The position numbers were made by a program, and so were the translations under genes. Below the pieces are notes generated by a model. It was not told the origin of the DNA, did no database searches, and saw only the letters and a list, made by a program, of their open reading frames with translations. 64,000 bases of DNA, taken from Chloroflexota bacterium (GTDB taxonomy: Bacteria; Chloroflexota; Anaerolineae; UBA4142). The DNA is taken from positions 28,054-92,053 of the forward strand of contig JACRBM010000032.1 of assembly GCA_016219275.1 (NCBI GenBank). Reading direction: 5' to 3'. Shown one piece after another: positions 7,913 to 43,086 of the stretch; position 1 is the first letter of the stretch; each line of letters begins with the position of its first letter.

Positions 7913-7936
7913 AAAGCAAACACGCTCAACCAACCA

Positions 7937-8060: not shown

Positions 8061-8110
8061 CCACAGGCGTGCGAGCTTGGAGAAATTTCAACTTGTTAAA
8101 TGACACGACT

Positions 8111-22519: not shown

Positions 22520-22544
22520 CCGATTTTCCTCCCTGTTGTTTCAA

Positions 22545-22590
22545 TCGCAACAAAAACCCTGTCACGGCGCGAGACGCGCCGTTGACAGGG
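22545..22590 (-). terminator. intrinsic-terminator-like hairpin inside the dmsA-2 leader (attenuator candidate)
   Basis: Minus strand: CCCTGTCAACGGCGCG-TCTC-CGCGCCGTGACAGGG followed by TTTTTGTT, about 25 nt before the dmsA-2 RBS. It has the same architecture as 34053-34098, with compensatory stem changes. Confidence 0.6.
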
Positions 22591-22634
22591 TTATGATCTT
22601 CATCAATCATCTCTTCATCCTGAAACCGACACGT

Positions 22635-22688
22635 TCAGGATACGGCAAAGTCAGTTTGAGCGCATCTCTCTTTGGAGTAATTTGGCAT
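22635..22688 (-). CDS. candidate 17-codon leader peptide (uORF) MPNYSKERCAQTDFAVS
   Basis: The ATG overlaps the TGA of the upstream gene (TGATG). The stop TGA lies in the 5' arm of a hairpin. A same-length counterpart, MPDYSKERCARHHFSVF, lies at 34141-34194. Confidence 0.35.
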   Translation of the reverse strand: MPNYSKERCAQTDFAVS

Positions 22689-22704
22689 CACCCGGTTGGG
22701 TGAT
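22687..22704. repeat. copy 2 of palindrome ATCACCC-GGTT-GGGTGAT
   Basis: Identical to copy 3. It encodes the last residues (NHPTG stop) of ORF 22688..24538 and contains the uORF ATG. Confidence 0.75.
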
Positions 22705-24538
22705 TTTGGCGGTTTGCGCGCGACCACATCGCCCAAATCAAGAGCGGCGCGCCTAGAATTGCCAGAGTGATGAATCCGTACGTCGTGAACGTGACGAGTT
22801 GCGCCACACTGATGCCGAACAGCACTACCCCGTCGCGCACTTGGGTGCTGAGAGTTGGCTCGGTCACAAATTCGGAAGGATCGCTGAACGTTCCGGTAAG
22901 TGCGCGGATAGCGAGGGGCTCGATCGCAACTGCACGCAGATTTTCAAAATGCGAATCAATCACCAGCATGTGCCCGGCATTCACGGTTGTTTGGCGCGAT
23001 GAATCGAGCGCCACGTTCGCGTTGCCTTCCATCACGTACAACCACGCGCGCTCGGCTTGTCGTTCGATGGCAACGCGCGCATTCTCGAACGTGATGGTCG
23101 CGCCAGCGGTTTCGATGGAAAACGCGCCGGTGCCCTTGCCCCACATCCAACCGTGCGTCAAAACCAGATGACCGCCGACCGATTCGGTGAGTGTTTCCGG
23201 TGGCAACATCGTCAAGCCGTTGCCCCACGCGATTTGGCGCAATTCGTTACGCGGCGCAAGCGTGATGGACACTGCCGCATCATTTTTGATCGCGATGCTC
23301 TGGCTCCAAAATCCCGGCGCAATCACGCGCAGCGTTTGCGCGTTTGCCGGAACATCGTACAACACAAACTCGCCGGTCGCAGGATTGGTTCGCGTGCCGC
23401 CGGATGCTCCATCTAACGCGACCCAGCCGAACGGTACTGGCTCGCCGTTGCTAGCGCGAATCGTTCCGTGCACCACGCGCGGCGAGGCAACATTCGCAGT
23501 TAACGCGACCGTGGCTTGCGCCGATGACGCGATGGATAAATCAATCTGGGACGCATTGGCTTGGAGCGAGCGCGGCGCGAGTTCGGCCGGGTCGAGCGCG
23601 ACGAGATAGCGCGCAACCGGCAATTCGGAAAATGCAAATGCACCCTCGCGCGCTTGCGCGACAAAACTCGCGCCGGTTTGCCCGTCAATCGCGCGAACCG
23701 TCAATACCGAATCTCCGACGCCGCGAATCGTTCCGGTGATTTGACCGCGCCGCGCGCGCACCGGCAAGGTCAACATTTCGCCGAACGCTTGTCCGGGTTT
23801 CAAAGTCGTTTGTTTCGATTCGACGCTTTCGTACAATACGCCATTGACCACGACCGGCGGTACGGTAAAAATGTAACGCGTCGAAGATTGCGCGAGCGCT
23901 TCAACTTGGACGCGCGCGTGACCAGTCGTATCGGTCGTTGCCGTACTCGTTCGGGCGCGCCACAGGTACATTCGCGCGGAACCCAGGACTGGGATATTCG
24001 GAATCGTCTGCTCAGGATGATCCGCGTCGACGACCTTGACTGGAATGATCGCGCTGCCCGAATGATCCACGATGATGGTCCGCTCGGCGACGGCTTGGTT
24101 GCCCGCGGGGTCGGTCGCGGTGACGCGCACAAGCACTTTGCCGCGCGGCAAGGCAATCGGCGACGTGAAATGACACTCGATGCATCCAGTGTGCGGATCA
24201 GGAAAATCAGCGCCAGCCGGATTCGCGGTCACAGAGAAAGAGAAGGAGCCATCGGGGTTCGCGCGCGATTTAAGATTCGCGGTCAGTTCCGTTCCGCGCA
24301 ACAAATCCAATTGGAGTTTGATCAGACTAGGTTCGGGATTGCTCGTGACGATCCAACCGTTGATGTAAATGCTGTACAAAAACGCACTGGGCGAAACGTA
24401 AACTGTTTCGCCCTGAGCAGGAGTCGCGATCACAACCGCGAGACGGCTAGATTGCGCGTGGGCTGATCGAGTCCCCAAAAAGAAAAGCGCGGCGACCAGC
24501 GCCATTCGCAGAATCCAAAAATTTTTCGAAGAGAGCAT
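22688..24538 (-). CDS. paralog of 11418..13274: secreted, C-terminally anchored CarboxypepD_reg-like protein with one CxxCH
   Basis: Signal peptide (ALVAALFFLGTRSAHA). CIECH motif at the position equivalent to CDACH. Collinear with its paralog (…WIVTSNPEPSLIKLQLDLL… vs …WVVTSNPEPSLVRVRLDVL…). C-terminal TM helix. Confidence 0.7.
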   Translation of the reverse strand: MLSSKNFWILRMALVAALFFLGTRSAHAQSSRLAVVIATPAQGETVYVSPSAFLYSIYINGWIVTSNPEPSLIKLQLDLLRGTELTANLKSRANPDGSFSFSVTANPAGADFPDPHTGCIECHFTSPIALPRGKVLVRVTATDPAGNQAVAERTIIVDHSGSAIIPVKVVDADHPEQTIPNIPVLGSARMYLWRARTSTATTDTTGHARVQVEALAQSSTRYIFTVPPVVVNGVLYESVESKQTTLKPGQAFGEMLTLPVRARRGQITGTIRGVGDSVLTVRAIDGQTGASFVAQAREGAFAFSELPVARYLVALDPAELAPRSLQANASQIDLSIASSAQATVALTANVASPRVVHGTIRASNGEPVPFGWVALDGASGGTRTNPATGEFVLYDVPANAQTLRVIAPGFWSQSIAIKNDAAVSITLAPRNELRQIAWGNGLTMLPPETLTESVGGHLVLTHGWMWGKGTGAFSIETAGATITFENARVAIERQAERAWLYVMEGNANVALDSSRQTTVNAGHMLVIDSHFENLRAVAIEPLAIRALTGTFSDPSEFVTEPTLSTQVRDGVVLFGISVAQLVTFTTYGFITLAILGAPLLIWAMWSRANRQNHPTG

Positions 24539-24547: not shown

Positions 24548-25537
24548 CTAACGCTTCGGCGTCGGTGTTGGATTCGGGTCTGGGTTGCGTGGAAAGTTGG
24601 TGCACCAAAAGAGCGACGCGCCTTCTGCGTGGCACACATCGCATCCAATTTGCGATGCGACGACCGTTCTCAATGTACCTTGGGGATGATGACAGCGTTC
24701 GCAATCTACTTCCAATTGCAAATTGTGCGAGGGCCACGAAGTTAACGTGTGCGCAAAGCGGAGTGTGATGTACGTGTTCAAGTGACGCGCGGCAATCCGT
24801 GAGGGCGCCTCGGTTTCAAATCCGACACTCAACCCGCCCGCGTCGTGACACGCCGTACAATTCACCTGCGGATGCTTGGCGTGTTCCGCCGCGCCGCGCC
24901 CTTTGGTCGGGTCGTGGCAATCCGCGCACTTGACCGGCGCGTTGTGCGCGCCGTGACATTGCGTACACGCCCAACCCTTGTGCGCCGGAGAAATTTTTTG
25001 TTCGGTCATTACTTCAAAGCCGTGGCGACCTTCGTGACAGTGCGCGCACAATTCATTCGCATCGTGAACGGCTTGGTACTGTTTCGTCTCATTGTTCCAA
25101 AACGACAGCGCGGTCGAATACGAATTGCCCACCGGTTGATGGCACACGTCGCAACCGATATTCTGCCATGCGCTCGTCGCCACCGGCACACCACCTTCGA
25201 GGTCAGGTCGCGGCGCGCCGGGCACGCGCTTGCACGCGCCGCAATCCAACGCCGATTGCGCCGCGGGCGCTTTGGCATCCCAGTTGAACGGCGACTTGCA
25301 CCGCGCACACGTGGTGTTCGCGCCCGCGCCGTTATCGAACGTACTCGCATGCCCAGATTGCGTCCAGTCCAGTTTCGCCTTGGCAACTTGAGCGGCGGTC
25401 GCCACGCGCCCGCTTGCTCGCGTTGGCGTTGGCGTCGTCCCAGATTGGCGTGGCGGCGCGGCGGAGACCTGGCTTGTGAGCGAGAACAAACCCAGGAGAA
25501 AGATTAAACCTAAAGCAAATGCAATTTTATTCGTCAT
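24548..25537 (-). CDS. multiheme cytochrome c (7 CxxCH, two CxxCK), paralog of 13271..14119
   Basis: I moved the start to ATG 25537 (MTNKIAFALGLIFLLGLF signal). Motifs CDVCH, CAHCH, CTQCH, CADCH, CTACH, CERCH, CDVCH, plus CARCK and CGACK. Confidence 0.85.
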   Translation of the reverse strand: MTNKIAFALGLIFLLGLFSLTSQVSAAPPRQSGTTPTPTRASGRVATAAQVAKAKLDWTQSGHASTFDNGAGANTTCARCKSPFNWDAKAPAAQSALDCGACKRVPGAPRPDLEGGVPVATSAWQNIGCDVCHQPVGNSYSTALSFWNNETKQYQAVHDANELCAHCHEGRHGFEVMTEQKISPAHKGWACTQCHGAHNAPVKCADCHDPTKGRGAAEHAKHPQVNCTACHDAGGLSVGFETEAPSRIAARHLNTYITLRFAHTLTSWPSHNLQLEVDCERCHHPQGTLRTVVASQIGCDVCHAEGASLFWCTNFPRNPDPNPTPTPKR

Positions 25538-25550
25538 AGATTTTAGACAT

Positions 25551-25578
25551 GTAGGGGCGTTCAACTGAACGCCCCTAC
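25551..25578 (-). repeat. intercistronic GC stem-loop after dmsC copy 3
   Basis: GTAGGGGCGTT / AACGCCCCTAC, 11-bp stem with a 6-nt loop, between dmsC-3 and the cytochrome gene. Confidence 0.7.
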
Positions 25579-25583
25579 AAGTT

Positions 25584-26501
25584 TTACTGCAAACCGAAAT
25601 GCGTCGCCGTGGCGTAGAACAGGAATCGCCCGACGATTTCGCCAACCAGCACAAACGCAAACGCGCTGTACGCGAGAATGCTCAACATCCGTTCGTGTCC
25701 CGCGTTTTGCGCTTCGCGATAAGCAAAGATGCCGAGCACGCCTGCGCCCAGAAACACGAGCACGAGACGCAACGCGAACAGCACACCGTACTCTCCTACG
25801 AACATCGCCGCGCTTGCCGCTGCGCCACTTGCCGCCATCAATGCGATAGACAAGGGCAAGACGACGAACTGAAAACCCAGCAAGACGATGGACGAAATCG
25901 CAATCCAGCGGAGCGCATCGCGCAAGAGTACGCACTGCTCACTCGCGCACCCAGGATTTTTTCTCTGCACGTACCAGTAATTCGCGACGAATGCCGCGCC
26001 CATCGCCAGCACGCCGAGCAACAACGTCGTCGCATAAAACGATACCGGCGTCGTCACTAGATTCCATGCGGGGCGCGTTGGCATCATGTAGACTTGCGAC
26101 ATACTGTACACGAGCGCGACGCCGATGACCGCCGCGATCATCGCGACGACGTTACGCACCGTGAACGTCGCAATCTTTTTCCACTGCATCACCGCAAACA
26201 CCGCGCCCGCCACTGCGAACAACACGCCGAAGAAAATCTCGCGCGAGAGCCACGAGGTTCCCAGGTTCGTCACGGCTTTGTACGCGTTGACCGGATTGCC
26301 GAGGTGCAGGAGCGACGCCGCCATACCGAGCGCGAGCACGGGACCGATCGCGAGGAGCGCGCGGTCGGACAACTCATCCGCTTGTTTCTCGCCCGACTTG
26401 CGGACGACGAAATAGTGGACGATGCCGAGGACGATGAACGATCCTACGGACATTTGGGCGAGGATCGTGAACGTAATCAATGCCCATTCACGCACGTTCA
26501 T
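25584..26501 (-). CDS. dmsC: DMSO-reductase-family membrane anchor subunit, copy 3
   Basis: I moved the start to ATG 26501 (MNVREWALITF). The long track ORF to 26705 overlaps dmsB-3. Confidence 0.85.
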   Translation of the reverse strand: MNVREWALITFTILAQMSVGSFIVLGIVHYFVVRKSGEKQADELSDRALLAIGPVLALGMAASLLHLGNPVNAYKAVTNLGTSWLSREIFFGVLFAVAGAVFAVMQWKKIATFTVRNVVAMIAAVIGVALVYSMSQVYMMPTRPAWNLVTTPVSFYATTLLLGVLAMGAAFVANYWYVQRKNPGCASEQCVLLRDALRWIAISSIVLLGFQFVVLPLSIALMAASGAAASAAMFVGEYGVLFALRLVLVFLGAGVLGIFAYREAQNAGHERMLSILAYSAFAFVLVGEIVGRFLFYATATHFGLQ

Positions 26502-31438: not shown

Positions 31439-34030
31439 TTATGCCTCCTTGATTGGAACGCGCGGCGACCATTTGTAATCTGGTTCGAGCGGCTTGCCGT
31501 TCCATTTTTCGACTTGCACGACACACGCTTGCCACGATTCGATGTCCGGTCCCGACGCGTAATCGCCCGAGAGGGTATTCGTCGCGCCGGCAATGTCGTT
31601 GCCGTTCTCGTCGAATTCGGGCCACGCGCCTTCGCCGAGGAACACGACGCCGGGTCGCGCGCGCGGGGTGACGCTCACGCGGCGCAGGACGGCGCCGCTC
31701 TTGTTAAAGATGCGCACCGTATCGCCGTGTTTGATTCCGCGCGCGTCGGCGTCCAGCGTGTTGATCATCAATTCTTGGGGCCATGCTTCGCGCAACCAGG
31801 TCACGTTGTCGAGCACCGAGTGCGAGCGGCGCGGATAGTGAATGTTGCACAGTTGGAGTGGGAATTGACCTTTAACCTGCTTTTCCCAATCCGCAAACGT
31901 CGCTTCGTACCCTTCGGTCGGCGGATCGTACACCGCGATGGGATAGCCCTGATTCCATCCGGCATTCGTCACCAAATCCGCTAATTCTTTCGAGTGCAAC
32001 TGTAGTTTGCCGGATTTGGTTTGAAGCGGGTTCGCTTTCGGATCTTTGCGGAATTTTTCAAGGTGAACGTAACCGAGTTTGTCGCCCATCTTGCGCGGCA
32101 CCGCGTAAAATCCTTGCTCGCGAAATTCTTTGAGCGTGATGCGACCTTGTTGTGGTTTGCCGGTCACACCCATCGTCTTGATGTCCTCGTCCGTGATCGT
32201 GACGAGCGGTTCCATACCGGAACCATCAGTCTTCATCACTTTAGCGCCAACCACGATATTGAACGTGCTCTGCGCCTCGGTGAGCGGATTGACTTTGGAG
32301 ACATCCAAACCCAGGCGTTTGGCGATTTCGACCGCGATCCACATATCGTCTTTCGCTTCGAACATTGGTTGCACAACCTGGCTCGCCCAGACGACGAGTT
32401 CGCGATTGCCGGCTTGGAAATTCGAGTAGCGTTCCCAGGGTGTCGTCACCGGGAGCACCAGGTCGGAGTACTTGGCATTGCTGTTCAACCCGTACTGCTG
32501 AGTAACGACGAACTCGACTTTGCGATGCGCGGCGATGCCTTTGTTGATGTTGTTCGTTTGATTCAGGCGCGAGCCGCCGCCGTGATAGATCATTTGAATG
32601 TTGATGTCTTTTTTCGCGCCTTTGCCGGCGGTGTACTTGCCGGTCATGATCGCGTCCCAGTGTTCGTTACTGCACAGACGAATCTTGGTCAGCGGATTCG
32701 CGACCGCCGGCGTGCCGGCAGAACCCAGGGTCACGAGCGAGGGACCGCCGTTCGACGCGGAGTTGTGGCAACTGATTCCGCACGAGCCGCCGGAAATGCC
32801 CATATTGCCGGTCATCGCGCCCAGACTGATCACCGCGAAACAAACGTGTTGCGATTTTTCGACGCGCGCCGAGTTCCAACCAAAGAGGAGCGCAGTCGGT
32901 TTGGTGCGCGCAACTTCGAGCGCGAACGAACGAATTTTTTCGGCGGGCACACCGCAGATGCGCGCCGCCCATTGCGGCGTCTTGGGCGTGTTGTCGTACG
33001 TGCCGAGCACGTAATCCTTGAAACTTTCTTTCGGGTCCGCGCCCTCGGGCATGTGGTCTTTGTCGAACCCGACGGTACACCGAGTGAGGAAATCCCAGTC
33101 AATCAATGGGTTCGCTTTCGGATCGTCTTCGGTGAGCATCACGTACGCCATCGCCAACAGCATCGGCGTGTCGGTGGTCGGGCGAATGGGAATCCATTCG
33201 TCCGCAAGAATACTGGCGGTTGGATTGAAGAACGGATCAACGAAAATGAATTTCGTGCCCGCGCGTTTGGCTTGCAAAAAATTGTAGGACGCCAATCCCA
33301 TGCTACTCCACGCGGGATTGTTCCCCCACATCACGATCAATTTTGAATTGACCAAATCGAAGCGGTCGTTCATTTCGCTTTGCGCGGTCGTGCCCGTGAT
33401 GGGTTGTTGTCCCAATCGCCACGCGCCGCGTGAAGTGCTGCCGTAATTTTCGACGTACCCGCCGGCAAGCGCGAGCGTGCGTTGAATTTCACTGCCGCCG
33501 GTGCAGTAGATAGATTCGTTGCCGTACTTTTCCTTGATGCGTTTGGTTTCGCTCGTAACGATGTCGAGCGCTTCATCCCAGGTAATGCGTACCCATTCGT
33601 CTTTGCCGCGCAATTCTTTTTTGCCGCCGCCCGGCGCCCAGTTCTTGCGCTTCATCGGGTACTTCAAGCGGTCGCTGGAAAACGCTTGCATCCGTTGCGA
33701 ACGACCGCGCAAACATCCGCGTTGCTGCGGAAAATCCGGCGTGTCGGGGTGCGTGTCGTCGGTCTTGACGCGCGTGACGACGCCATCGGTCACGTACGCG
33801 CGAATCGGACAACGTCCGCCGCAATTGTGCCAGCACGCCGCGGCAACCCACTTGCCTTCTTTCGCCGGGGCAACCGTCGCCGGCGCGGCATGGGTTGGTT
33901 TCAAACCAACATCCACCCCACTACTTGCCAACACGGCAGTGCCACCCAACGCCGCGCTCCATTTCAAGAACGTGCGCCGGGAAAGCAAGGTGTCGGTTAA
34001 GGCGCGAGTGACCACATCTTTTTCACTCAT
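31439..34030 (-). CDS. dmsA: Tat-exported DmsA-like catalytic subunit, copy 4
   Basis: RBS GGGAGGA. Tat motif SRRTFLKW. CWHNCGGRC cluster. DmsA-like throughout. Confidence 0.9.
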   Translation of the reverse strand: MSEKDVVTRALTDTLLSRRTFLKWSAALGGTAVLASSGVDVGLKPTHAAPATVAPAKEGKWVAAACWHNCGGRCPIRAYVTDGVVTRVKTDDTHPDTPDFPQQRGCLRGRSQRMQAFSSDRLKYPMKRKNWAPGGGKKELRGKDEWVRITWDEALDIVTSETKRIKEKYGNESIYCTGGSEIQRTLALAGGYVENYGSTSRGAWRLGQQPITGTTAQSEMNDRFDLVNSKLIVMWGNNPAWSSMGLASYNFLQAKRAGTKFIFVDPFFNPTASILADEWIPIRPTTDTPMLLAMAYVMLTEDDPKANPLIDWDFLTRCTVGFDKDHMPEGADPKESFKDYVLGTYDNTPKTPQWAARICGVPAEKIRSFALEVARTKPTALLFGWNSARVEKSQHVCFAVISLGAMTGNMGISGGSCGISCHNSASNGGPSLVTLGSAGTPAVANPLTKIRLCSNEHWDAIMTGKYTAGKGAKKDINIQMIYHGGGSRLNQTNNINKGIAAHRKVEFVVTQQYGLNSNAKYSDLVLPVTTPWERYSNFQAGNRELVVWASQVVQPMFEAKDDMWIAVEIAKRLGLDVSKVNPLTEAQSTFNIVVGAKVMKTDGSGMEPLVTITDEDIKTMGVTGKPQQGRITLKEFREQGFYAVPRKMGDKLGYVHLEKFRKDPKANPLQTKSGKLQLHSKELADLVTNAGWNQGYPIAVYDPPTEGYEATFADWEKQVKGQFPLQLCNIHYPRRSHSVLDNVTWLREAWPQELMINTLDADARGIKHGDTVRIFNKSGAVLRRVSVTPRARPGVVFLGEGAWPEFDENGNDIAGATNTLSGDYASGPDIESWQACVVQVEKWNGKPLEPDYKWSPRVPIKEA

Positions 34031-34052
34031 TGGCTTTTCCTCCCAATTGATT

Positions 34053-34098
34053 CAAAACAAAAATCCCTGCCCTTGCGCGGAACGCGCAGAAGGCAGGG
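34053..34098 (-). terminator. intrinsic-terminator-like hairpin inside the dmsA-4 leader (attenuator candidate)
   Basis: Minus strand: CCCTGCCTTCTGCGCG-TT-CCGCGCAAGGGCAGGG followed by ATTTTTGTTTT, about 20 nt before the dmsA-4 RBS. Confidence 0.6.
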
Positions 34099-34140
34099 AA
34101 AAATGACACTGACTCCTGAAAACGGTACGTTCAACTGTTT

Positions 34141-34194
34141 TCAGAATACGCTAAAATGATGGCGGGCGCATCTCTCTTTGGAGTAATCCGGCAT
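34141..34194 (-). CDS. candidate 17-codon leader peptide (uORF) MPDYSKERCARHHFSVF
   Basis: The ATG overlaps the TGA of the response-regulator gene (TGATG). The stop lies in the 5' arm of hairpin CTGAAAACAG...CCGTTTTCAG. Counterpart of 22635-22688. Confidence 0.35.
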   Translation of the reverse strand: MPDYSKERCARHHFSVF

Positions 34195-34210
34195 CACCCG
34201 GTTGGGTGAT
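34193..34210. repeat. copy 3 of palindrome ATCACCC-GGTT-GGGTGAT
   Basis: Part of a ~50-nt block shared with 22660-22710 (GCGCATCTCTCTTTGGAGTAAT..GGCATCACCCGGTTGGGTGATTTT). Confidence 0.75.
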
Positions 34211-34880
34211 TTTGCGGCGTCGGCGAAAATGCCAAGCCCGATTGGACGGCGTATGTGGCGACTTGGGTCCGATTTTCGAGACGCAACTTGGCGAGGATGT
34301 TACGCAAATGCACCTTGACGGTGTTGACGGTGATGCACAAGTTTTCGGCGATTTGCGGATTGCTCTCGCCTTGCGCGACGAGGCGGAGGACTTGAATTTC
34401 GCGCTCGGTTAACGCTTGCTCGCCGGTGTTTGCATCGGCATTGTGATGTGCGATGCCTTTGAGCAAACGCGCCGCCATCGCGCGCGTCATCGCGACTTCG
34501 CCTTGCGCCACCCCGCCGAGCAAATCGAACAACTCGGCGGCGTCGAGACTCTTGAGTAAATACCCGGCGACGCCTTGCCGCACCGCGCGATAGAGTTGCT
34601 CGTCGGATTCGGACGCGGTCAAGATGACGACGCGCACATCACTCCAGCGTTGTTGAATTTGCGCGGCGGCGTGCAATCCATCGCCGTCCGGCATTTGCAA
34701 ATCCATTAACACGACATCAGGGTGATGACGCTCGACGAATAGAATGGCTTCGCGCCCGGTCCCGGCTTCACCGACCACATGGACGAGATCGGGTCGCGTG
34801 TTCATCAGCCCGATCAAGCCCTGGCGAAACAGACGGTGATCGTCTGCGATCAAAACGTTCAACGGACAACTTGCATTCAT
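34194..34880 (-). CDS. NarL/FixJ-family response regulator (REC + LuxR-type HTH)
   Basis: Canonical receiver residues (ADDH, VVLMDLQMP, ILTAS, YLLKS). C-terminal LTEREIQVLRLVAQGESNPQIAENLCITVNTVKVHLRNI. A ~12-residue tail runs into the shared repeat block. Confidence 0.9.
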   Translation of the reverse strand: MNASCPLNVLIADDHRLFRQGLIGLMNTRPDLVHVVGEAGTGREAILFVERHHPDVVLMDLQMPDGDGLHAAAQIQQRWSDVRVVILTASESDEQLYRAVRQGVAGYLLKSLDAAELFDLLGGVAQGEVAMTRAMAARLLKGIAHHNADANTGEQALTEREIQVLRLVAQGESNPQIAENLCITVNTVKVHLRNILAKLRLENRTQVATYAVQSGLAFSPTPQNHPTG

Positions 34881-34904: not shown

Positions 34905-36827
34905 TCAACTTTCCAAAACGGGCAAAACCAGATTCACGCGTGTGCCGATACCGATTTCAGAATTGATCGTCAACACGCCGTGGATACTTTCCGCGCGCTC
35001 GCGCATCGTCTGCAAACCAAAATGATCCTTGACGGTGGTCGCCTGAAAGCCAACCCCGTTATCGGTGATACCGATTTGAATCGCGTGATGGCGTTTGGAT
35101 AAACGAACTTGAACGTGACTGGCTTGCGCGTGCTTGCGGACATTCGCCAACGCTTCTTGCACGATCCGCACCAACTGCGCTTCTGCCAACGGCGACAAGC
35201 GCGGCGGCTCTTGAATTTGATCAACGAATTGAACCTGGATGCTGGTCTGCACGCCAAATTCTTCGATGTAATCGCGGAGCGCGACGATCAAACCGGTGTC
35301 GCCCGCAAGCGTCGTGCGCAGACTCAATACATTTTCGCGCACATCGGCTTGCGCCGCATTGATGGACGCGCGCGTCTTGGTCAATTCGGCGCGAATCGAA
35401 TCGAGATCGCCTTGCCGCGTGAACGCTTCGATGGTCTGCATTTCCAAGTTGAGATAACCCAGGATTTGCAGTAGCCCATCGTGCATCTCGCGCGCGATGC
35501 GCGACCGTTCCTCGGTCACCGCGAGCGATTGCAGTCGCGCCGTCATCGCCGCGTGTTCGAGCGCGATCACCGCTTGATCCGCCAATCGTTCCAGTCCAAT
35601 GAGATCCGTCGGCGTAAATGACGCGGGCGACACGCGTCCGATCCACAGTCCACCCAGCACTTGGTTCTCTAACTGGAGCGGTACGCACGCGACCGCGTGG
35701 ATTTTCTGCCCCAGCATCGCGCACGACCATGGTTCTTGCGCCGTCGGCGCATCTTCAGGAAAACGCATCGCTTGATGCGCGCGCAAGGCTTCGATAATCA
35801 GCGGATGAGTCTGGGTCGGCAGATTTTCGTGGCGCGCCCCTTGCGCGGTCGCCAGGCATTTTAGTTCGAGCCGCGATTGGTCTTCGTTCCACAAACCGAG
35901 CGCCGCCAGATCGGACGACAACAATTTACGCGCCAGACTCACGGTCGCGCCAAGCACATCCTCCACGTTTTCCAAATCGGCAACGCGACGACTGATGCTG
36001 ACCAAACCTTCCGTCCAGTTCTCGGCGATTTCACGTTCCGCGCGTTGCGCGGACAGAGCCGTCGTTTGATCGCGTTCGTGTTCGAGTTGCAGCGCGTGTA
36101 ACTGCTGTTCCCGTTCGACCTCGAACACATCGAGCGCGCGCACGACGAAAAACGCGACAGCAATCGCCGATAGCGCGCGCCACATTTGAACGGGCAACCC
36201 CGTCAATTGCCGGACACTTTCATAATTGACCCAGGGGGCGAGTCCGTACGGCGCCGTCGGCACGACCAAGCCGGCGGCGATGCCGTTGAACAGAAACGCG
36301 ACTGCCGCGCCAAACATCAAACGCCGCGCTTGGACAATTCCGCCGCGCGACAATCCGCGCCATTGGCGGACGAATCCAAACACCGCCAAGAGACAGCCGG
36401 GAAAATAAAGCAAGTACCGCGACCAGACATCCGTCGCGATTTTGAGCATGCCGCCGCTCGCCGCCACCGTCAACGCGTACGCGACCAAAAACGCGAGCGG
36501 CACCAGAAGCGCCACCGGCACAAACGCGAGCCATTCCGGCAATGGACCGGCTTCGCTTACCAGTCCAACTCCAAACCGGATCAAGCAGAGCGCCGAAAGG
36601 GGCAACAAGATCATTCGCGCGCCAGTTAAGAATCCATGCGGCGCACCGTCAAGATAGACCATCATGAACATGTCGCACCACTCGACCGCGCTGTGGACTA
36701 GCCCAAACGCTGCGAGCCAGGGCAAATGACGACTGAGCACGAGTTCGCTACTGCGCCGCGCTTCGAGTGCGACGGCGAGACCCATCGCAAAAAATGCCGC
36801 ACCGTAAAAGAAATAAACCGCGAGCAT
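34905..36827 (-). CDS. multi-TM sensor histidine kinase (about 7 TM helices, GAF-like, HisKA_3, HATPase_c)
   Basis: Start ATG 36827 overlaps the upstream TAA by 1 nt. Hydrophobic N-terminal ~290 aa. H-box SRIAREMHDGLLQ. ATPase motifs ITDNGVGF and GLQTMRERA. Confidence 0.85.
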   Translation of the reverse strand: MLAVYFFYGAAFFAMGLAVALEARRSSELVLSRHLPWLAAFGLVHSAVEWCDMFMMVYLDGAPHGFLTGARMILLPLSALCLIRFGVGLVSEAGPLPEWLAFVPVALLVPLAFLVAYALTVAASGGMLKIATDVWSRYLLYFPGCLLAVFGFVRQWRGLSRGGIVQARRLMFGAAVAFLFNGIAAGLVVPTAPYGLAPWVNYESVRQLTGLPVQMWRALSAIAVAFFVVRALDVFEVEREQQLHALQLEHERDQTTALSAQRAEREIAENWTEGLVSISRRVADLENVEDVLGATVSLARKLLSSDLAALGLWNEDQSRLELKCLATAQGARHENLPTQTHPLIIEALRAHQAMRFPEDAPTAQEPWSCAMLGQKIHAVACVPLQLENQVLGGLWIGRVSPASFTPTDLIGLERLADQAVIALEHAAMTARLQSLAVTEERSRIAREMHDGLLQILGYLNLEMQTIEAFTRQGDLDSIRAELTKTRASINAAQADVRENVLSLRTTLAGDTGLIVALRDYIEEFGVQTSIQVQFVDQIQEPPRLSPLAEAQLVRIVQEALANVRKHAQASHVQVRLSKRHHAIQIGITDNGVGFQATTVKDHFGLQTMRERAESIHGVLTINSEIGIGTRVNLVLPVLES

Positions 36828-37540
36828 TACAACGACCTCGCCGGCAAATAACCCGGTCCATACTCCAAATCCAACCAGGTATCGCTGAGATGAATCAATG
36901 CGTCGAAAAACGGACTGGGCGCGCGATCCGACACGCGCCGACAAAATTCCGGAAACCAGCGTCCCAGGTGATCGTCGAGAAAGGTGCGTTCCTGCAATCG
37001 CAATTGCCGCGCCGATTCCGACGCGTTGACTTGCCACACGTCGGATTCGCGCGCGCACAAAAACGCCATGAATTCCAGTTCGACGGGGAGCAGGTCTTCT
37101 TGATTTTCACGCGGCGCTACGCCAAATTGTCCATAGTGTTGGCGAAGCGAACTCGCAAGTTCGTTCGCCGTTTCCAGGAGCGCCGATGCTTCGCGCCACC
37201 GGTACGCCGATTCCCGCATGGGGACGCGATCAATGCTTTTGCCAAACAACCGTTGATAATCGTTCTCCAGATCGGTCAAGGTGAGCGTGGTGCATTCGCG
37301 CAACTTGGTCAAACTCGCCAGAAATTTTTTGCGATCCTCACCGAACCAGACGGTCGCGAGCAAAATTTCTTCGACCAACCGACCGGAATTCACCGCCGAC
37401 ACGAGTTCAGGATCGGGCGCATAGAAACTCAGGGCGAGCCAGCGATAGACCTGACTGCGTCCGCGCGCAACCTGATGCAGAATCGCACAGGCGCGCAATG
37501 TTGGATCGGTTTCGATGGTGTTCGCGGTTGGAGTAATCAT
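36827..37540 (-). CDS. TorD/DmsD-like chaperone, second and more divergent copy
   Basis: YQRLFGKS...PMRESAY...EDLLPVELEFMAFL parallels the TorD-family core. The ATG at 37540 overlaps the upstream stop (ATGA). Confidence 0.65.
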   Translation of the reverse strand: MITPTANTIETDPTLRACAILHQVARGRSQVYRWLALSFYAPDPELVSAVNSGRLVEEILLATVWFGEDRKKFLASLTKLRECTTLTLTDLENDYQRLFGKSIDRVPMRESAYRWREASALLETANELASSLRQHYGQFGVAPRENQEDLLPVELEFMAFLCARESDVWQVNASESARQLRLQERTFLDDHLGRWFPEFCRRVSDRAPSPFFDALIHLSDTWLDLEYGPGYLPARSL

Positions 37541-38157
37541 GTCAAGTAATAGACCGATGGTTCGGTTCCTTTTTCGACGAGTAACTGAAAGTGCAAACGC
37601 GCGGCAAGCAATTGCGCGACCTCGCTTGTCGGATCGTTGAGATCGCCAAACTTGCGCGCTTGTACCGGGCACACATCCACGCACGCCGGATTTTCGCTGC
37701 GCGCAAGCCGATGCGCGCAGAACGTACATTTTTCGACAGTGTGCGCGCGATGCACGAGCGGATTGTCGCCGGTCGGAAACGGCAGGGCGTAACGCGGTTG
37801 TTCATCGGCGAACACGCGCACGCTCGTGAACGGACACACCATCATGCACGAGCGACAGCCGATGCACAGCCCAGGGTCTTGCACGACCACGCCATCTTGC
37901 TCACGACGACTCGTCGCCGTGGAAGGACACACGTCCACGCACGGACCTTGCGCGCAATGTTGGCACGCGAGCGGCAGATATTCGAGACGCAAATCCGGAT
38001 AATTGCCGGCGGGCAGATCGTCGCCGTTCCCGCCAATGGTGACGACGCGCGTCCACCACACACCTTCGGGCAAATTATTTTCCTGCTTGCACGCGACCGA
38101 ACACGTGTTACAACCCGTGCACAGTCGAAGGTCAATCAGCATCACGTATCTAATCAT
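37537..38157 (-). CDS. DmsB/NrfC/PsrB-type 4x[4Fe-4S] subunit without signal peptide
   Basis: CTGCNTCSVACK, CQHCAQGPCVDVCP, CIGCRSCMMVCP, CTFC...CVDVCP. The ATG at 38157 is preceded by AGAGGTGA and overlaps the catalytic-subunit gene by 8 nt. Confidence 0.85.
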   Translation of the reverse strand: MIRYVMLIDLRLCTGCNTCSVACKQENNLPEGVWWTRVVTIGGNGDDLPAGNYPDLRLEYLPLACQHCAQGPCVDVCPSTATSRREQDGVVVQDPGLCIGCRSCMMVCPFTSVRVFADEQPRYALPFPTGDNPLVHRAHTVEKCTFCAHRLARSENPACVDVCPVQARKFGDLNDPTSEVAQLLAARLHFQLLVEKGTEPSVYYLT

Positions 38158-41032
38158 TCGCGTTCACCTCTGCGCGCACGACCTCGACCAATACATCGGA
38201 CAACGACGTGCTCACCCCGAACGCGTTCGTCGCATTGCCGCCGCTGTACGTCAGCGATTGCGGGTGTCCCGCCTTGAAATCCTTGGACTGCCAACCCTGG
38301 GTCAGATAGACCGTGCCCGGCGGAACAGTTTGATTGAGCCGCGCGCGCAGAACGACGAACCCGCGTTCGTTGAACAAGCGCACCCAATCACCATCCTGGA
38401 TTTGCCGCGCGGCGGCGACCGAGGGATGCATCGCCGCGCGGGGTTCGCGATCGAGTTCGCGCAACCACGGCGCGTCGCTAAAGGTCGAGTGAACGCGATA
38501 GCGGCTGTGTTCGGTGATGCAAACCAACGGATAGCGGAGAATTTGTTCGCCTTCGGGATCAGCTTCGCCGGGCGGCTCGTAATTCGGCAACGCCGTGTTG
38601 AATGGCAACAAGCGTTCGACGTAGAACTCGACGCGCCCGGTCGGCGTGTTGAATTTCCAGTCGCGATGCGCGACCTGGGGTTCCGCCGGCACATTCCGAC
38701 GCAATACGCCGCGCGCACACAACTCATCGAACGAAAGTGTGTTCGTCGTTTCATCGGACGCGGCGAGAATTTCTGCGAGGTATTCACGCGGCGCGCGCGT
38801 AAAATAATCGCCGCAACCCAGTTTTTGCGCGACCAGCGCGGCGATGTCAAAATCGGAACGACACTCGCCGGGCGGCGGCACAATGGCGGGTTGATATTGA
38901 ATGTACGGCGTCGGTCCCTTGACCATATCCTCGCGTTCGAAAAACATCGCCGCCGGTAACACATAGTCCGACCAACGCGCGGTCTCGGTCATAAAATGAT
39001 CGGCGGTCACGATCAAATCCAAGCGCGGCAAAACTTCATTGAGCAAGTGCGCGTGATTGGGCCATTGATTGAGCCAGTTGCCGAACGCAACCCAGACCGC
39101 TTTGATCGGATAGGGTCGCCCGCTTATGATTTGTTCGGAGAGCATCACTGGATTGATCGGATGATGTGTTTTGCCGTCGGGAGAGTTGAAATTGTGATTG
39201 AACATCACGCCGTCCGTAAATCCATCCACGCCCGCACCGCCGCCGGGAATTCCCAGGTTGCCGGTCAACGCGGCGAGCGTCGCCATCAAGCGACCGAACG
39301 TCGCGCCGTGATGCCAGCGGTCAATCCCGTACAGCGTAAAAATGCGCGCCGGTCGCGTCGTCGCAAAATCGCGCGCAAGTGCGAAAATGTGATCGGGCGC
39401 GATGCCGGTTTTCTCGGCGACAAATGCCGGCGTGTACGGCTGGAGCATTTCGCGTAATCGGTCGAACGCTGTGCGGCACGCGATGCCGGCGATGTCGTAC
39501 CGACCAGCCAGCGCGGGCGCGCTGGCTTGGTGAGGCGCAACGACGCGACCTTGTTGCGCATCCCACACGAGATAGGATTCGTCGTCGGATTGCAAATCGG
39601 ACGCGCGCAGAAAACGCCCATTGTCCTCGCGCACAAGCAGAGGCGCGACGGTGTGTCGCAAAACAAAATCTTGGTTCATCCAATTTTGTTCGATGATGAG
39701 TCGCGCCAATGCGAGCGCGAGATACAAATCAGTGCCCGGTCTGATCGGTAGCCACGCGTCCGATTTGCTCGCGGTGATACTGAAGCGGGGATCAATCGTC
39801 ACAAGACGCGCGCCCGCGCGTTTGGCATCGAGGAAAGAATTCCACCAGTTCATCCGGCTCTGGGCTGGGTCGCCGCCCCAAATCAAAATCAATTTCGAAT
39901 TCGGGAGGTCGGTGAAATCATTCGCCGTGTAACCCGCGCCGCTACCCAGCGCGTCTTCGATGCCGCTGGGCACCGCGCTATCCACGCCGTACATCGCCGG
40001 ACTGACCGCTGACGCGCCGAGCGCGCTCGCCAAGCGTGAGTAAACACCGTTCATGCTGTTCAGTGTGCCTAGTTGACCGGAGTATGGAAAGAACATCAAA
40101 CTCGAATCGCCGTACTGGGTTGCAATCGTGCGCATCTGCGTGGTAATTTCATCTATCGCTTGATCCCAGGAGAGGCGTTGCCATTTGCCGCTGCCGCGCG
40201 CGCCGGCGCGTTTAAGCGGATGCAACAAGCGCTGCGGATGCGCGAGCATTTGCGTGTAACTGATGCCCTTGAGACAAATACGGCGATAGCGTTCGTCCGG
40301 AAAATCGGCGGGTTCGATTTTGACCACGTGGTTATCGCGCACGGTCACGTTCAATCCGCAAAAATGCGAGCCGCAGTTGAGATTGCACGCGGTTCGCGTC
40401 GTGCGCGTCGGCGCGATGGTAGACACGGTTTTCGATGTGAGGGTTAGCCCGCGCAAAAATGTTTGCTTTTCAGCCGCGTCCGGTTGATCGGCAGAATCCT
40501 GGGACGCCATCGTTGGAATCGTCGGCGCGAGTTGTTCGACGATTTGATCGCTGAGTTGCGCGAGACTGAGTTCCGCGCCATCGCGCGTGTACGCCGATTC
40601 GCCCAGCGGCGCGCCGTCCTGCGCGATCTGCGCGATCTTGTTCGCGATGCCGTTCGCCAACAGGGCGCGTTTGAGCACCTCCGCCACGGCGGGCGCTAGC
40701 TCCGTGGTCAAATCTTCAATGTTCACCACGCCGTTCGCGCCGGTGCGAATGGCGGCATCGCGATAATCGCGCGTGTCAAAAGGTAACAAGACAATCAACG
40801 GCACGGATGGCGCGCTCGATTTCAATTGTCGGAGCAAATCCAACCCAGGTTCGCCAAACGCGAACGGTTCCGCCACCACCACATCGGGTTTCATCTGCGC
40901 CTGCAGCATGAGGTCTTGGCGATTTTGGGCGACCAGGATTTCGGCATTCGCGGCAAGCGTTTGCGAAATGGTTTCGCGCAACCAAACGTGGGGAACGCCG
41001 AGCAAAATTCGAATAGGTGTTTTTGAATTCAT
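38150..41032 (-). CDS. fusion protein: degenerate receiver (pseudo-REC) domain, linker with fossil Tat motif, DmsA-like molybdopterin oxidoreductase
   Basis: ATG 41032 (MNSKTPIRILL) after GGGAG. Residues ~8-130 are CheY-like but the catalytic residues are substituted. EKQTFLRGLTLTS resembles a Tat leader without the twin Arg. Cys cluster CNLNCGSHFC-x27-C. MopB body (KLILIWGGDP, LVTIDPRFS, WLPIRPGTD). No signal peptide. Confidence 0.8.
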   Translation of the reverse strand: MNSKTPIRILLGVPHVWLRETISQTLAANAEILVAQNRQDLMLQAQMKPDVVVAEPFAFGEPGLDLLRQLKSSAPSVPLIVLLPFDTRDYRDAAIRTGANGVVNIEDLTTELAPAVAEVLKRALLANGIANKIAQIAQDGAPLGESAYTRDGAELSLAQLSDQIVEQLAPTIPTMASQDSADQPDAAEKQTFLRGLTLTSKTVSTIAPTRTTRTACNLNCGSHFCGLNVTVRDNHVVKIEPADFPDERYRRICLKGISYTQMLAHPQRLLHPLKRAGARGSGKWQRLSWDQAIDEITTQMRTIATQYGDSSLMFFPYSGQLGTLNSMNGVYSRLASALGASAVSPAMYGVDSAVPSGIEDALGSGAGYTANDFTDLPNSKLILIWGGDPAQSRMNWWNSFLDAKRAGARLVTIDPRFSITASKSDAWLPIRPGTDLYLALALARLIIEQNWMNQDFVLRHTVAPLLVREDNGRFLRASDLQSDDESYLVWDAQQGRVVAPHQASAPALAGRYDIAGIACRTAFDRLREMLQPYTPAFVAEKTGIAPDHIFALARDFATTRPARIFTLYGIDRWHHGATFGRLMATLAALTGNLGIPGGGAGVDGFTDGVMFNHNFNSPDGKTHHPINPVMLSEQIISGRPYPIKAVWVAFGNWLNQWPNHAHLLNEVLPRLDLIVTADHFMTETARWSDYVLPAAMFFEREDMVKGPTPYIQYQPAIVPPPGECRSDFDIAALVAQKLGCGDYFTRAPREYLAEILAASDETTNTLSFDELCARGVLRRNVPAEPQVAHRDWKFNTPTGRVEFYVERLLPFNTALPNYEPPGEADPEGEQILRYPLVCITEHSRYRVHSTFSDAPWLRELDREPRAAMHPSVAAARQIQDGDWVRLFNERGFVVLRARLNQTVPPGTVYLTQGWQSKDFKAGHPQSLTYSGGNATNAFGVSTSLSDVLVEVVRAEVNAND

Positions 41033-41068
41033 GATGACTCCCAAACATACCAAACGCGCACGCTCATT

Positions 41069-41140: not shown

Positions 41141-41776
41141 TCAGTCGAGCAATTTGTGGTGCAACGCATACTCGACCAATTCGGAACGATGCGCCAAGCC
41201 CAATTTTTGCATGATGCGTTCGCGATATGTCTCGACGGTCCGCGGCGACAGCGCGAGTTGATCGCCGATTTCGCGGCTCGTGTACCCCTTTGCCGTCAAC
41301 ACAAGAACTTGGCGTTCGCGTTCTGAAAGTGGATCGCGATCGGGCTTGGGCGATTGATGGTCGCGCACCATCGCGGCAACACCTTCGGGTTGTAGAAACG
41401 ATTCGCCGCGTGCGACCGCGCGAATCGCCGCGACGACATCGCGGTCAGCCGCCGATTTGCGAACATACCCGGCGCCGCCGGCTTGTAGAAATGGCACGAG
41501 GTACGCATCCTCGTCGTGCATCGTCAGCGCGAGCACGTGCGCATTGGGTAAAGTTGCGTGAATGCGTCGCGTCGCTTCGACGCCGTCGAAATCCGGCAGA
41601 GTAATATCCATCACGACCACATCCGGTTGCAGATCGAGTGTTTGTCGAACGGCGCGCGCGCCATCTGCCGCTTCACCTACAACTACCATGTCGGATTGTT
41701 TTTCGAGCAACAGCCGCACACCGGTGCGCACGACCGCGTGATCATCCACAAGCAAAACGCGAATCGGCGCGGTCAT
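41141..41776 (-). CDS. NarL/FixJ-family response regulator, second copy
   Basis: VDDH, VVVMDITLP, ALTMH and YVRKS receiver residues. LSERERQVLVLTAKGYTSREIGDQLALSPRTVETYRERI HTH. The ATG overlaps the kinase stop (ATGA). Confidence 0.9.
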   Translation of the reverse strand: MTAPIRVLLVDDHAVVRTGVRLLLEKQSDMVVVGEAADGARAVRQTLDLQPDVVVMDITLPDFDGVEATRRIHATLPNAHVLALTMHDEDAYLVPFLQAGGAGYVRKSAADRDVVAAIRAVARGESFLQPEGVAAMVRDHQSPKPDRDPLSERERQVLVLTAKGYTSREIGDQLALSPRTVETYRERIMQKLGLAHRSELVEYALHHKLLD

Positions 41777-42951
41777 TTCGATTCTCCCAACGGCAACTCG
41801 ATCAAGATGCGGGTCCCGGCATCGGGTGCGGAATCTACTTGCAAGCGTCCGCCCACAAGCGCCACGCGTTCGCGCATGCCTTCCAAGCCCATACCGTTTC
41901 GATGGTCAATTCCAGGATTCATCCCTTTGCCATCGTCTTCAATCGTGAGCCAAACGGCGCGCGCGCCTTGTTCCAAGGTGACACTCGCATGATGCGCCTG
42001 CGCGTGGCGCACGATATTCGTCAGTCCTTCCTGCACCGCGCGATACAAAATAATTTCGTGGTCGGTTGGCAAGCGGTCTATGGTAGGGCTAGGAGTGAAA
42101 ACGATCTCGATGCCGCTTCGTTTGCACCATTCTTGAACGTACCCGCGAATCGCCGGCACCAAGCCCAGGTCGTCGAGCGCGGTTGGACGCAAATCCATGG
42201 CAAGTCGCCGTACCTCTTCGAGCGTTTCGCCGGTGAGATAGCGCAGACCATTGATTCGATCGTGAATCAATTCGAGGTCGGTTTCGGTTTGCAATGCTTT
42301 CAAGCGCAGCAAGATCGAGGTGAGCGATTGCCCGGTCTCATCATGCAATTCGCGCGCGAGGCGTTTGCGTTCCGCTTCCTGCGCGGAGAGGGCATGGTGC
42401 AAGAGGTGTTCAAGGCGTTCGCGCTTGGCTTGCACGTCCGCGAGCAAGCGCAGGTTCTCCTGATTCAACTCCGCCATTTCGCGTTGTTGGCGCAGCAAAG
42501 CCAGGTTCGTTTCGCGCAGACTATTCACCATCGTGTTGAATTCAGATTGCACCTCGCCGATTTCATCGCGCGCCCAAATCGGAATTTGGACGGTGAGGTC
42601 GCCGGCTTTGACGCGTCCCATCGCGCGCACAATATTTTGGAGTGGATGAACGAGGATTCGCGTAAAAATGACCGCCAGCCCCAAGCCCAGTAAAGCGACG
42701 CCGACAAAAACGGTCGCGGCTTGCTCAGTTAAAGCAATAAAGATTTGAGCTTGAATGGACTGCGCGCCGTGTATCTGGAGCAGTACGCCGAGACGCTCGC
42801 GGATGAACAATGCTCCACCAATGCCGCCAACCAAAAGCGGCAACACAATCAGCCCGATTACTTTGAGAGCAACCGGCGTCGCGCCAATCCATTGCCAGAA
42901 GATACCTATCCGTTCCTCCACGCGCGTCAAGATTGATTGATGCAATTTCAT
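41773..42951 (-). CDS. NarX-like sensor histidine kinase (2 TM, HAMP, HisKA_3, HATPase_c)
   Basis: H-box LARELHDETGQSL. HAMP-like VHPLQNIVRAMGRVKAGDLTVQIP. IEDDGKGM and GLEGMRERV ATPase motifs. Start uncertain (42951 MKLHQS, or 43020). Confidence 0.85.
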   Translation of the reverse strand: MKLHQSILTRVEERIGIFWQWIGATPVALKVIGLIVLPLLVGGIGGALFIRERLGVLLQIHGAQSIQAQIFIALTEQAATVFVGVALLGLGLAVIFTRILVHPLQNIVRAMGRVKAGDLTVQIPIWARDEIGEVQSEFNTMVNSLRETNLALLRQQREMAELNQENLRLLADVQAKRERLEHLLHHALSAQEAERKRLARELHDETGQSLTSILLRLKALQTETDLELIHDRINGLRYLTGETLEEVRRLAMDLRPTALDDLGLVPAIRGYVQEWCKRSGIEIVFTPSPTIDRLPTDHEIILYRAVQEGLTNIVRHAQAHHASVTLEQGARAVWLTIEDDGKGMNPGIDHRNGMGLEGMRERVALVGGRLQVDSAPDAGTRILIELPLGESK

Positions 42952-43086
42952 GCTCACAGTCCCGTTCCGATTCGGAAGACCACAACCCCGAACGTTCTTC
43001 AACACCTTCGCCAAAATCATAAATTGATCCGCGAATAACGCGAATCACGCGAATTTTCGAGACTGTAGCATGCCCGCCGGTAAAAT

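Follow-up and report, generated by a model that had tools for sequence, protein, structure and literature searches.

A predicted operator–promoter block and a covarying RNA hairpin upstream of DmsABC-type operons in Chloroflexota

Two dmsA genes in a stretch of DNA from a Chloroflexota bacterium (assembly GCA_016219275.1, contig JACRBM010000032.1, positions 28,054 to 92,053; the whole stretch of 64,000 nucleotides is referred to as the window) are preceded by homologous leaders, which raises the question of what these leaders control and how. In a sequence-only reading, a 17-codon upstream open reading frame (ORF; here uORF1), a hairpin and a terminator had been noticed in each leader, and a ribosome-dependent attenuator had been proposed. 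Comparison with homologous leaders points to another answer: the element is, on balance, probably a two-layer control region of a DmsABC-type operon, with operators and a promoter at the level of DNA and a hairpin (P3) together with a second short frame (uORF2) at the level of RNA; uORF1 itself is most likely promoter DNA that happens to be readable as codons. The two leaders are located as follows:

34031-34216, minus strand: leader A, between a NarL-type response-regulator gene and dmsA-4
22520-22710, minus strand: leader B, between a gene for a 616-aa CarboxypepD_reg membrane protein and dmsA-2

Leaders A and B are homologous from CCGCCAAAATCACCC onward. The block of about 50 nt that had been reported to be shared on the minus strand was found again, with approximately 48 of 50 positions identical versus approximately 75% identity in the adjacent 5′ coding DNA of the dmsA genes, and the 22-mer ATTACTCCAAAGAGAGATGCGC has exactly two occurrences versus zero expected. 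Homologous loci (identified below by L numbers) were collected by a DmsA-4 protein search with one genome per species, which gave 80 loci, the closest being Chloroflexota groundwater metagenome-assembled genomes (MAGs; 77–87% identity), and by a pattern scan of metagenomes, which added 55 contigs, about 35 of them with DmsA at the expected distance. Among the metagenome matches without DmsA downstream, several were discarded as chance (L101 and L118, with few ORFs; L133, with the match within an ORF). The alignment of upstream regions comprised 61 sequences, including 31 genome-derived rows and a copy at window position 8154 not selected on the −10 hexamer described below. Counts are partly script output and partly hand counts on tool alignments, the latter applying to the scoring of P3 and to the codon comparison of uORF2. 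L076 is listed as a Gammaproteobacteria MAG, but its leader sequence does not differ from that of the Anaerolineales MAG L077; a binning error in the public database probably accounts for this.

The DNA-level features of the two leaders, all on the minus strand, are the following:

34194-34209, minus: P1 operator of leader A, palindrome TCACCCAACCGGGTGA, centred at about −65.5 from the predicted start
22688-22703, minus: P1 operator of leader B, overlapping the end of the 616-aa CarboxypepD_reg gene
34170-34187, minus: P2 of leader A, ATTACTC-CAAA-GAGAGAT, a degenerate copy of P1 centred at about −42.5
22664-22681, minus: P2 of leader B, from comparison with leader A and the family alignment
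34171-34166, minus: −35-like ATGCGC of leader A, weak and abutting P2
34143-34148, minus: −10 hexamer TATTCT of the dmsA-4 promoter, predicted start near 34136
22637-22642, minus: −10 hexamer TATCCT of the dmsA-2 promoter, predicted start near 22630

P1 is a 16-nt palindrome, TCACCC-N4-GGGTGA, with 6-4-6 geometry. Exact copies are present in 28 of the 80 DmsA loci, once in each and 150–330 nt 5′ of dmsA; all 28 belong to Chloroflexota-type MAGs, and no copy was found in the Firmicutes loci within these 80 DmsA-homology loci. Each of the six arm pairs is unchanged in 58–61 of the 61 aligned sequences, and the 4-nt spacer is free. No compensatory changes were found in these sequences, with zero double changes within the arms and single mismatches left uncompensated. 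With invariant arms, a free spacer and uncompensated mismatches, P1 was ruled out as an RNA hairpin, and by this comparison P1 behaves as a protein-binding DNA site. P2 follows 6–7 nt after P1 with the consensus ATTnCYC-N4-GRGGGAT and the same 6-4-6 geometry, and each of its halves agrees with P1 at 4–5 of 6 positions; over a slightly longer stretch, the family consensus is GATTnCTC-N4-GGnGGGATG. A covarying small hairpin in the RNA of P2, suggested by eye (CTC/GAG, CCC/GGG, TCC/GGA), was rejected as not above column shuffles (54–117 of 500), and since its pairing is no better than in shuffles, P2 is likewise read as a DNA site. The interpretation of P1 as the putative high-affinity palindrome and of P2 as its degenerate copy is well supported by the alignment. 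The palindrome occurs only three times in the window, in agreement with the earlier remark that dmsA-1 and dmsA-3 lack this leader.

The P1 consensus is identical to 5′-TCACcCgnncGgGTGA-3′, the site of the NarL/FixJ regulator BldM of Streptomyces, which was defined by chromatin immunoprecipitation sequencing (ChIP-seq) and DNase I footprinting (PMC4125116). The genes adjoining leader A include a candidate regulator of the same family:

34194-34880, minus: NarL-type response-regulator gene (REC-GerE), directly upstream of leader A
34905-37058, minus: GAF-HisKA_3 histidine kinase gene, preceding the response-regulator gene
31439-34030, minus: dmsA-4, the gene behind leader A

The regulator encoded at 34194-34880 is a canonical NarL/VraR/DevR-family protein, and the last codons and stop of its gene are overlapped by P1 of leader A. 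A REC-GerE regulator gene lies directly 5′ of P1 in the window, L009, L099 and L111, with the gene order kinase, DmsC-like protein, regulator, leader and DmsABC in the last three, and the C-terminal coding motif of the regulator can be recognised in 18 or more of the 36 upstream flanks. The view of the conserved block as a P1/P2 operator pair for a predicted NarL/FixJ-family response regulator is well supported, and the operators of leader A are most likely recognised by the regulator encoded immediately upstream. The suggestion that TACTCCA in the block loosely resembles a NarL heptamer stands insofar as the block is best read as NarL/FixJ-family operators, but TACTCCA is a part of P2 and not a NarL heptamer pair. 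The DmsC-like membrane protein between kinase and regulator (about 306 aa, PF04976; L009 2158–3078, L099 2045–2965, L111 2314–3237) might serve as an accessory component of the sensor, in the membrane or linked to quinones. The window differs, with a DmsC-like ORF (36827–37729) just upstream of the kinase.

The start of the shared block falls within the 3′ ends of two unrelated genes, those of the response regulator and of the following protein:

22688-24538, minus: CarboxypepD_reg membrane protein, 616 aa, upstream of leader B

Because the shared block begins inside both genes, both proteins end with the identical C-terminal residues QNHPTG* (34194–34211 and 22688–22705, minus). The regulator ORF of L099 likewise terminates at the TGA of GGGTGA. 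In the TGATG overlap, both the TGA and the ATG are part of the conserved GGGTGA-TG of the palindrome region, and the common QNHPTG* ending suggests that they belong to a non-coding element which the ORFs enter.

The −10 hexamer is positioned 22 nt after P2. In the 61 aligned promoters, T1, A2 and T6 are constant without exception and positions 4–5 are variable (variants TATCCT, TATTCT, TATGCT, TATCTT, TATATT, TATGAT, TACACT and TATAGT), a pattern of variation that, as judged from the alignment, is the TAnnnT signature of a −10 element. Three promoters lack P2 (window 8154, L055 and L057), and in these a TAnnnT hexamer follows P1 itself by 22–23 nt. With the predicted start set 7 nt after the hexamer, P2 is centred at −42.5 (P1 occupies this place in the three P2-less promoters) and P1 at −65.5, and the −35 position of the family holds only ATGYnn. 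An operator at a fixed distance from the −10 hexamer, with a weak −35, is thus the arrangement seen in the family alignment; a good −10 and a weak −35 behind two operators are the usual design of an activator-dependent promoter. The conserved block can be regarded, with fair confidence, as a regulator-dependent promoter. A −10 in the A-rich flank 5′ of P1, which would make P1 a repressor site covering the start, was also considered and was rejected, A2 being often missing; no conserved −35, −10 or extended −10 was found upstream of P1 in the upstream flanks of the family.

These DNA features coincide with the short frame that had been proposed as the sensing element:

34194-34141, minus: uORF1 of leader A, MPDYSKERCARHHFSVF*, 17 codons, comprising the end of P1, P2, the −35-like region and the −10
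22688-22635, minus: uORF1 of leader B, MPNYSKERCAQTDFAVS, 17 codons

Both 17-codon ORFs exist, their TGATG stop/start overlap with the upstream ORF is real in both leaders, and so is the position of their stop within the 5′ arm of the first hairpin. The final T of the −10 hexamer is at the same time the first base of the stop TGA (TATTCT-GA). All five copies of the window clade (leaders A and B, L005, L007 and L014) have an open frame, and the chance expectation for an open 17-codon frame is about 44%. The claim that the frame is kept in homologous leaders failed: an ATG after GGGTGA is present in 9 of the 61 homologues, five of them from the window clade, and the distance from P1 to the hexamer is 44, 45, 46 or 47 nt, with indels of ±1–2 nt in at least 15 of 60. 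No Shine–Dalgarno sequence (SD) of uORF1 was found in either leader, where GGGTG abuts the ATG. The synonymous changes noted earlier between A and B are real in two cases, but the variable part also has six non-synonymous codon changes, and the codons that are conserved fall on P2 and the −35-like hexamer. Since the predicted start lies downstream and neither start nor frame is kept among homologues, uORF1 is not supported as the sensing element of a ribosome-dependent attenuator, and the comparison refutes it as a conserved coding element. Exclusive antiterminator/terminator pairings of the trp/his type were not found beyond 4–6 bp, either by inspection or in folds.

The first hairpin, in contrast to the frame, is kept in the family:

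34114-34146, minus: P3 of leader A, 5′ arm 34146-34137 and 3′ arm 34123-34114
22618-22640, minus: P3 of leader B, TCCTGAA/TTCAGGA

The hairpins predicted in both leaders (CTGAAAAC/GTTTTCAG and CCTGAA/TTCAGG) were recovered, and both whole leaders folded better than their shuffles, with z values of −3.7 and −4.5. In the 44 aligned copies, 87% of the cells of P3 are paired, versus 33–52% in slid registers; the number of double-change cells was 53 (18.6 ± 3.2 in shuffles) and the covariation score 0.296 (0.139 in shuffles), each value being reached by 0 of 500 shuffles. This family-wide covariation bears out the prediction that the first hairpin is conserved in homologous leaders, and on this comparative evidence P3 is a real RNA structure conserved across the family. 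The strongest covarying pairs involve nucleotides 3–8 after the hexamer, and the 5′ arm begins inside the −10 hexamer, whereas the 3′ arm is ..UCAGGAG(A/G), a Shine–Dalgarno sequence, namely, that of uORF2. In leader A, positions of the −10 and of the start region are part of the 5′ arm, and the 3′ arm carries the SD AGGAG (34117–34113). Folding leaves AGGAG buried in RNA started upstream and free in RNA from the predicted start. Because, given the −10 assignment, a transcript from the operon's own promoter would lack nucleotides 3–4 after the hexamer, the full P3 would be possible only on upstream-started RNA. Such read-through RNA is expected, since in most loci the end of the regulator ORF falls within P1 or no more than about 70 nt from it, without an intervening terminator; exceptions with a terminator directly 5′ of P1 are L076/77/81, L029 and L037. 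Fold-back of read-through RNA via P3 is favoured because it is the simplest way to reconcile the −10 signature with the P3 covariation, and it is given about even odds. Immediately behind the predicted start lies a conserved GUGA-N7-9-(G)CACA (alignment A3 columns 13–32; for example, L099 3730–3750), which could be a small 5′-terminal hairpin on the own transcript, competing with distal P3.

The frame to which the SD in P3 belongs was identified in both leaders:

34023-34109, minus: uORF2 of leader A, GTG at 34109, 28 codons, TGA overlapping codons 2–3 of dmsA-4
22512-22610, minus: uORF2 of leader B, ATG at 22610, 33 codons, ending GAG TGA over the dmsA-2 start

In about 39 of 48 leaders, an SD is followed after 7–8 nt by an ATG or TTG, and about 21 copies of uORF2 (26–37 codons) end on or just past the dmsA ATG; uORF2 is probably translated. 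Between L060 and L105, which both keep 32 codons, 7 differences are synonymous-only and 11 non-synonymous. In leaders A and B, uORF2 traverses the terminator in the same frame to the same TGA despite the diverged stems. At the position of the ATG/TTG, L100, L052 and L110 have ATC or ATA.

The terminator-like hairpins lie between P3 and the dmsA start:

34054-34099, minus: terminator of leader A, hairpin 34099-34064 (ΔG −27.5 kcal/mol), T-run 34063-34054
34044-34039, minus: dmsA-4 SD GGGAGG, after the terminator of leader A
22549-22590, minus: terminator of leader B, hairpin 22590-22557 (ΔG −27.8 kcal/mol), T-run 22556-22549

Strong terminator-like hairpins followed by TTTTTGTT were confirmed in both leaders, and the compensating stems described for them also held, four stem pairs being retained through two-sided changes in four clade copies. 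Both terminators, which have a bulge in each stem, were missed by a simple consensus scan. The strong terminator is restricted to the window clade (leaders A and B, L005 and L007) and was dismissed as a family-wide feature; L027 has a weaker terminator, located inside a uORF2 that ends on the dmsA ATG. An antiterminator pairing CAGGAG with CUUCUG was considered and set aside, its 6 bp being too weak against a 16-bp GC-rich stem. Because the terminator is located after the promoter, it must act on the operon's own RNA. A ribosome following through uORF2 might prevent the terminator from forming, as in pyrBI, which by analogy is conceivable and rather doubtful.

According to the proposed mechanism, the regulator bound at P1 (−65.5) and P2 (−42.5) would activate the promoter with the weak −35, and P3 would pair the −10/start region with the SD of uORF2. 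On read-through RNA started upstream, the complete P3 would bury this SD, whereas in RNA from the own promoter, starting inside the 5′ arm, it would stay accessible. Ribosomes translating uORF2 would thereby be brought to the dmsA start that it overlaps and, in the window clade, would keep the spanned terminator from forming; the outcome in this clade would be that read-through RNA is terminated and RNA from the regulated promoter passes. That P3, the coupled uORF2 and, in this clade, the terminator within it filter transcripts by origin, and that this filter is conserved across Chloroflexota DmsA-type operons, is proposed tentatively, with somewhat less than an even chance of being right. The corollary that one terminator ends the upstream operon and yet is transparent to the downstream promoter is put forward just as tentatively.

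Several observations weigh against this scheme. The −35 (ATGCGC) is poor, the transcription start is placed from the hexamer, and the centres of P1 and P2 are 23 bp apart, a non-integral number of helical turns. The 47 metagenome sequences were fetched with a pattern fixing P1 and TATYCTGA, and invariance there is by construction. L029 and L037 keep P3 despite their upstream terminators, which silencing of read-through does not predict. About half of the uORF2 copies terminate early, nine leaders have only ATC, ATT or ATA at the start position, L111 has a minimal ATG TAA at the conserved position (8671–8676), and the peptide appears at most weakly constrained. In L007, CAGAAG stands in place of the SD and there is no uORF2 start, and in L005, uORF2 is interrupted by an inverted-repeat insertion of about 135 nt; both keep the terminator without an intact uORF2, so ribosome-dependent read-through cannot be general even within the clade. 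The insertion in L005, the closest relative, is located between the terminator and dmsA (about 3845–3985), consists of a long and perfect inverted repeat, GTCATTGCGAGGAGCGGTTTTTGCGACGAAGCAATC...GATTGCTTCGCAAAAACCGCTCGCAATGAC, and looks like a miniature inverted-repeat transposable element (MITE) or a repetitive extragenic palindromic (REP) element.

The behaviour of L005 and L007 speaks for a plain terminator of the upstream unit (for leader A, the kinase–regulator operon; for leader B, the cytochrome/membrane-protein genes), with dmsA expressed by constitutive partial read-through and with no role for ribosomes or a uORF. The restriction of the terminator to the window clade and the lack of another terminator behind the upstream genes also speak for this explanation. 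However, the promoter and operators lie upstream of the terminator, which must then act on their own transcripts; an SD-led ORF spans the terminator with the same frame and stop in both window paralogues; and L027 independently has a weaker terminator inside uORF2 ending on the dmsA ATG. On these grounds a plain terminator is considered unlikely. The attenuator originally proposed, in which uORF1 is translated by TGATG coupling and a ribosome at its stop in the P3 5′ arm decides the fate of the downstream terminator, as in trp, draws on the presence of a terminator, on a frame open in five clade copies and on the real TGATG and stop position. Against it stand the ATG in only 9 of 61 sequences, the indels in at least 15 of 60, the missing SD, the ratio of two synonymous to six non-synonymous changes, the probability of about 44% that such a frame is open by chance, and the coincidence of its conserved part with P2 and the −35-like hexamer; moreover, the predicted start lies downstream, no antiterminator was found, and most of the family has no terminator. 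This model is accordingly rated as highly improbable. In a weaker form of it, translation of uORF1 on read-through RNA only, which is conceivable, would open P3 and relieve the fold-back.

A further possibility is a single structured cis-regulatory RNA, either of the riboswitch type or bound by a protein, that extends over the entire region from P1 on and is made from an unrecognised upstream promoter, with P1 as a protein-bound RNA hairpin and with alternative pairings of GGAUG/UAUCC and P3 gating the uORF2 SD. The covariation of P3 takes in nucleotides immediately after the hexamer, the conserved GGAUG can pair with UAUCC, and GUAUCCUGA is invariant, all of which would suit an RNA element. 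Nevertheless, P1 shows no covariation and its mismatches are uncompensated, the pairing of P2 is not above shuffles, P1 equals a known DNA operator, and the variation of the hexamer tracks TAnnnT and not the pairing partner. In L076/77/81 and L029, a terminator ends approximately 10–13 nt before P1, leaving no space for an upstream promoter, and the flanks offer no conserved −35/−10 for one. An Rfam search of both leaders at E ≤ 10 returned only noise, the one family identified (RF01055) lying elsewhere in the window at 7925–8094. A structured RNA of this kind is therefore improbable, and the two-layer control region remains the preferred explanation.

Each component of the preferred two-layer region has a known counterpart, namely, the BldM-box operator, the activator-dependent promoter, fold-back inhibition, and leader-ORF coupling or attenuation. 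The NarL 7-2-7 sites, the DosR box and the tripartite ComA box are NarL-family operators consisting of inverted repeats bound by dimers. The leaders resemble these systems in having a strong site and weaker auxiliary half-sites upstream of a weak −35, and in belonging to anaerobic respiration operons, whereas the sequence of P1 is unlike TACYYMT, the DosR box and the ComA box. Fold-back inhibition in IS10 and IS50 reportedly protects these elements from external promoters, as described by Davis, Simons and Kleckner in 1985. As in those elements, a 5′ arm upstream of the own start would bury a ribosome-binding site only in transcripts entering from outside; the differences are that here the operon is cellular, the ribosome-binding site in question is that of a uORF coupled to the structural gene, the arm on the 5′ side overlaps the −10, and the function is a predicted one. 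In the pyrBI attenuator of E. coli, a leader ORF is translated through an intrinsic terminator and the input is uridine triphosphate (UTP). Similarly, an SD-led leader ORF spans the terminator here and ends at the start of the structural gene (leaders A and B and L027; not L005 and L007), and a close ribosome would block the hairpin. Unlike in pyrBI, nucleotide-sensitive pausing finds no evidence here, the ORF is broken in the closest relatives, and the input would be the origin of the transcript and not UTP. With the trp/his attenuators the leaders have in common that the structural gene is preceded by a short ORF, a hairpin and a terminator; regulatory codons, an antiterminator and a conserved start or frame are missing, and the ORF lies in promoter DNA. 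The closest match to P1 is with the Group I promoters of BldM in Streptomyces, whose site is bound by a BldM homodimer and where the 16-bp consensus, the 6-4-6 geometry and the type of regulator (REC with a GerE/LuxR helix-turn-helix) are the same (PMC4125116). BldM differs in being an orphan, atypical developmental regulator of Actinobacteria; the regulator here is paired with a GAF-HisKA_3 kinase, its binding is predicted, its targets would be Chloroflexota molybdoenzyme operons, and an extra degenerate site is present at −42.5.

The operator consensus common to the BldM box and P1 suggests an old, shared recognition specificity of NarL/FixJ regulators. A literature search on the regulation of dimethyl sulfoxide (DMSO) reductases in Chloroflexi gave nothing relevant, and this architecture is unreported there in Chloroflexota. 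To our knowledge, there is almost no experimental genetics for this phylum, and the operator, the promoter layout and the candidate two-component system would provide a first regulon-level handle on it; the target operons are the multi-copy respiratory operons of the DMSO-reductase family in groundwater and sediment bacteria of the Anaerolineae type. The main value thus lies in a regulon motif open to testing and in a possible filter of transcripts by origin, both in a phylum that has been little studied. If fold-back is true, the −10 region doubles as an anti-Shine–Dalgarno sequence and insulates a packed operon from its own regulator genes. The case of uORF1 also calls for caution, in that a short ORF within a conserved intergenic block may be promoter sequence that merely reads as codons.

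The third copy of P1 in the window is found outside the two leaders, with the following surroundings:

8154-8139, minus: third P1 copy, TCACCCAAGCGGGTGA, after the TAA of a radical S-adenosylmethionine (radical-SAM) gene
8139-8111, minus: promoter ATGACA-17-TATAGT, near-consensus, directly abutting the third P1 copy
8094-7925, minus: molybdenum cofactor (Moco) riboswitch RF01055, 66 bits, downstream of the third P1 copy
7217-7864, minus: FmdE-like gene, behind the Moco riboswitch

In this copy, P1 itself is centred at −42.5, and the predicted start lies 10 nt before the Moco riboswitch. The P1 regulator may consequently also control a molybdenum-cofactor-sensing transcript (7925–8154), to judge from this arrangement.

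Five paralogue sets of DmsA, DmsB and DmsC are located in one 27-kb stretch (14164–41053, minus), interleaved with multihaem cytochrome c7-like genes (13271–14119 and 24548–25660) and with two CarboxypepD_reg-domain proteins (11418–13565 and 22688–24538). Because only 0–63 nt separate dmsA-1 and dmsA-3 from the preceding dmsC, these two genes are probably co-transcribed with dmsA-2 and dmsA-4. A second two-component pair, consisting of a HAMP-HisKA_3 kinase and a REC-GerE regulator (41141–43020, minus), is situated directly upstream of the longer dmsA-5 (38150–41053); the P1 palindrome is not present in the 87-nt gap between this pair and dmsA-5, which is presumably controlled through an operator other than P1.

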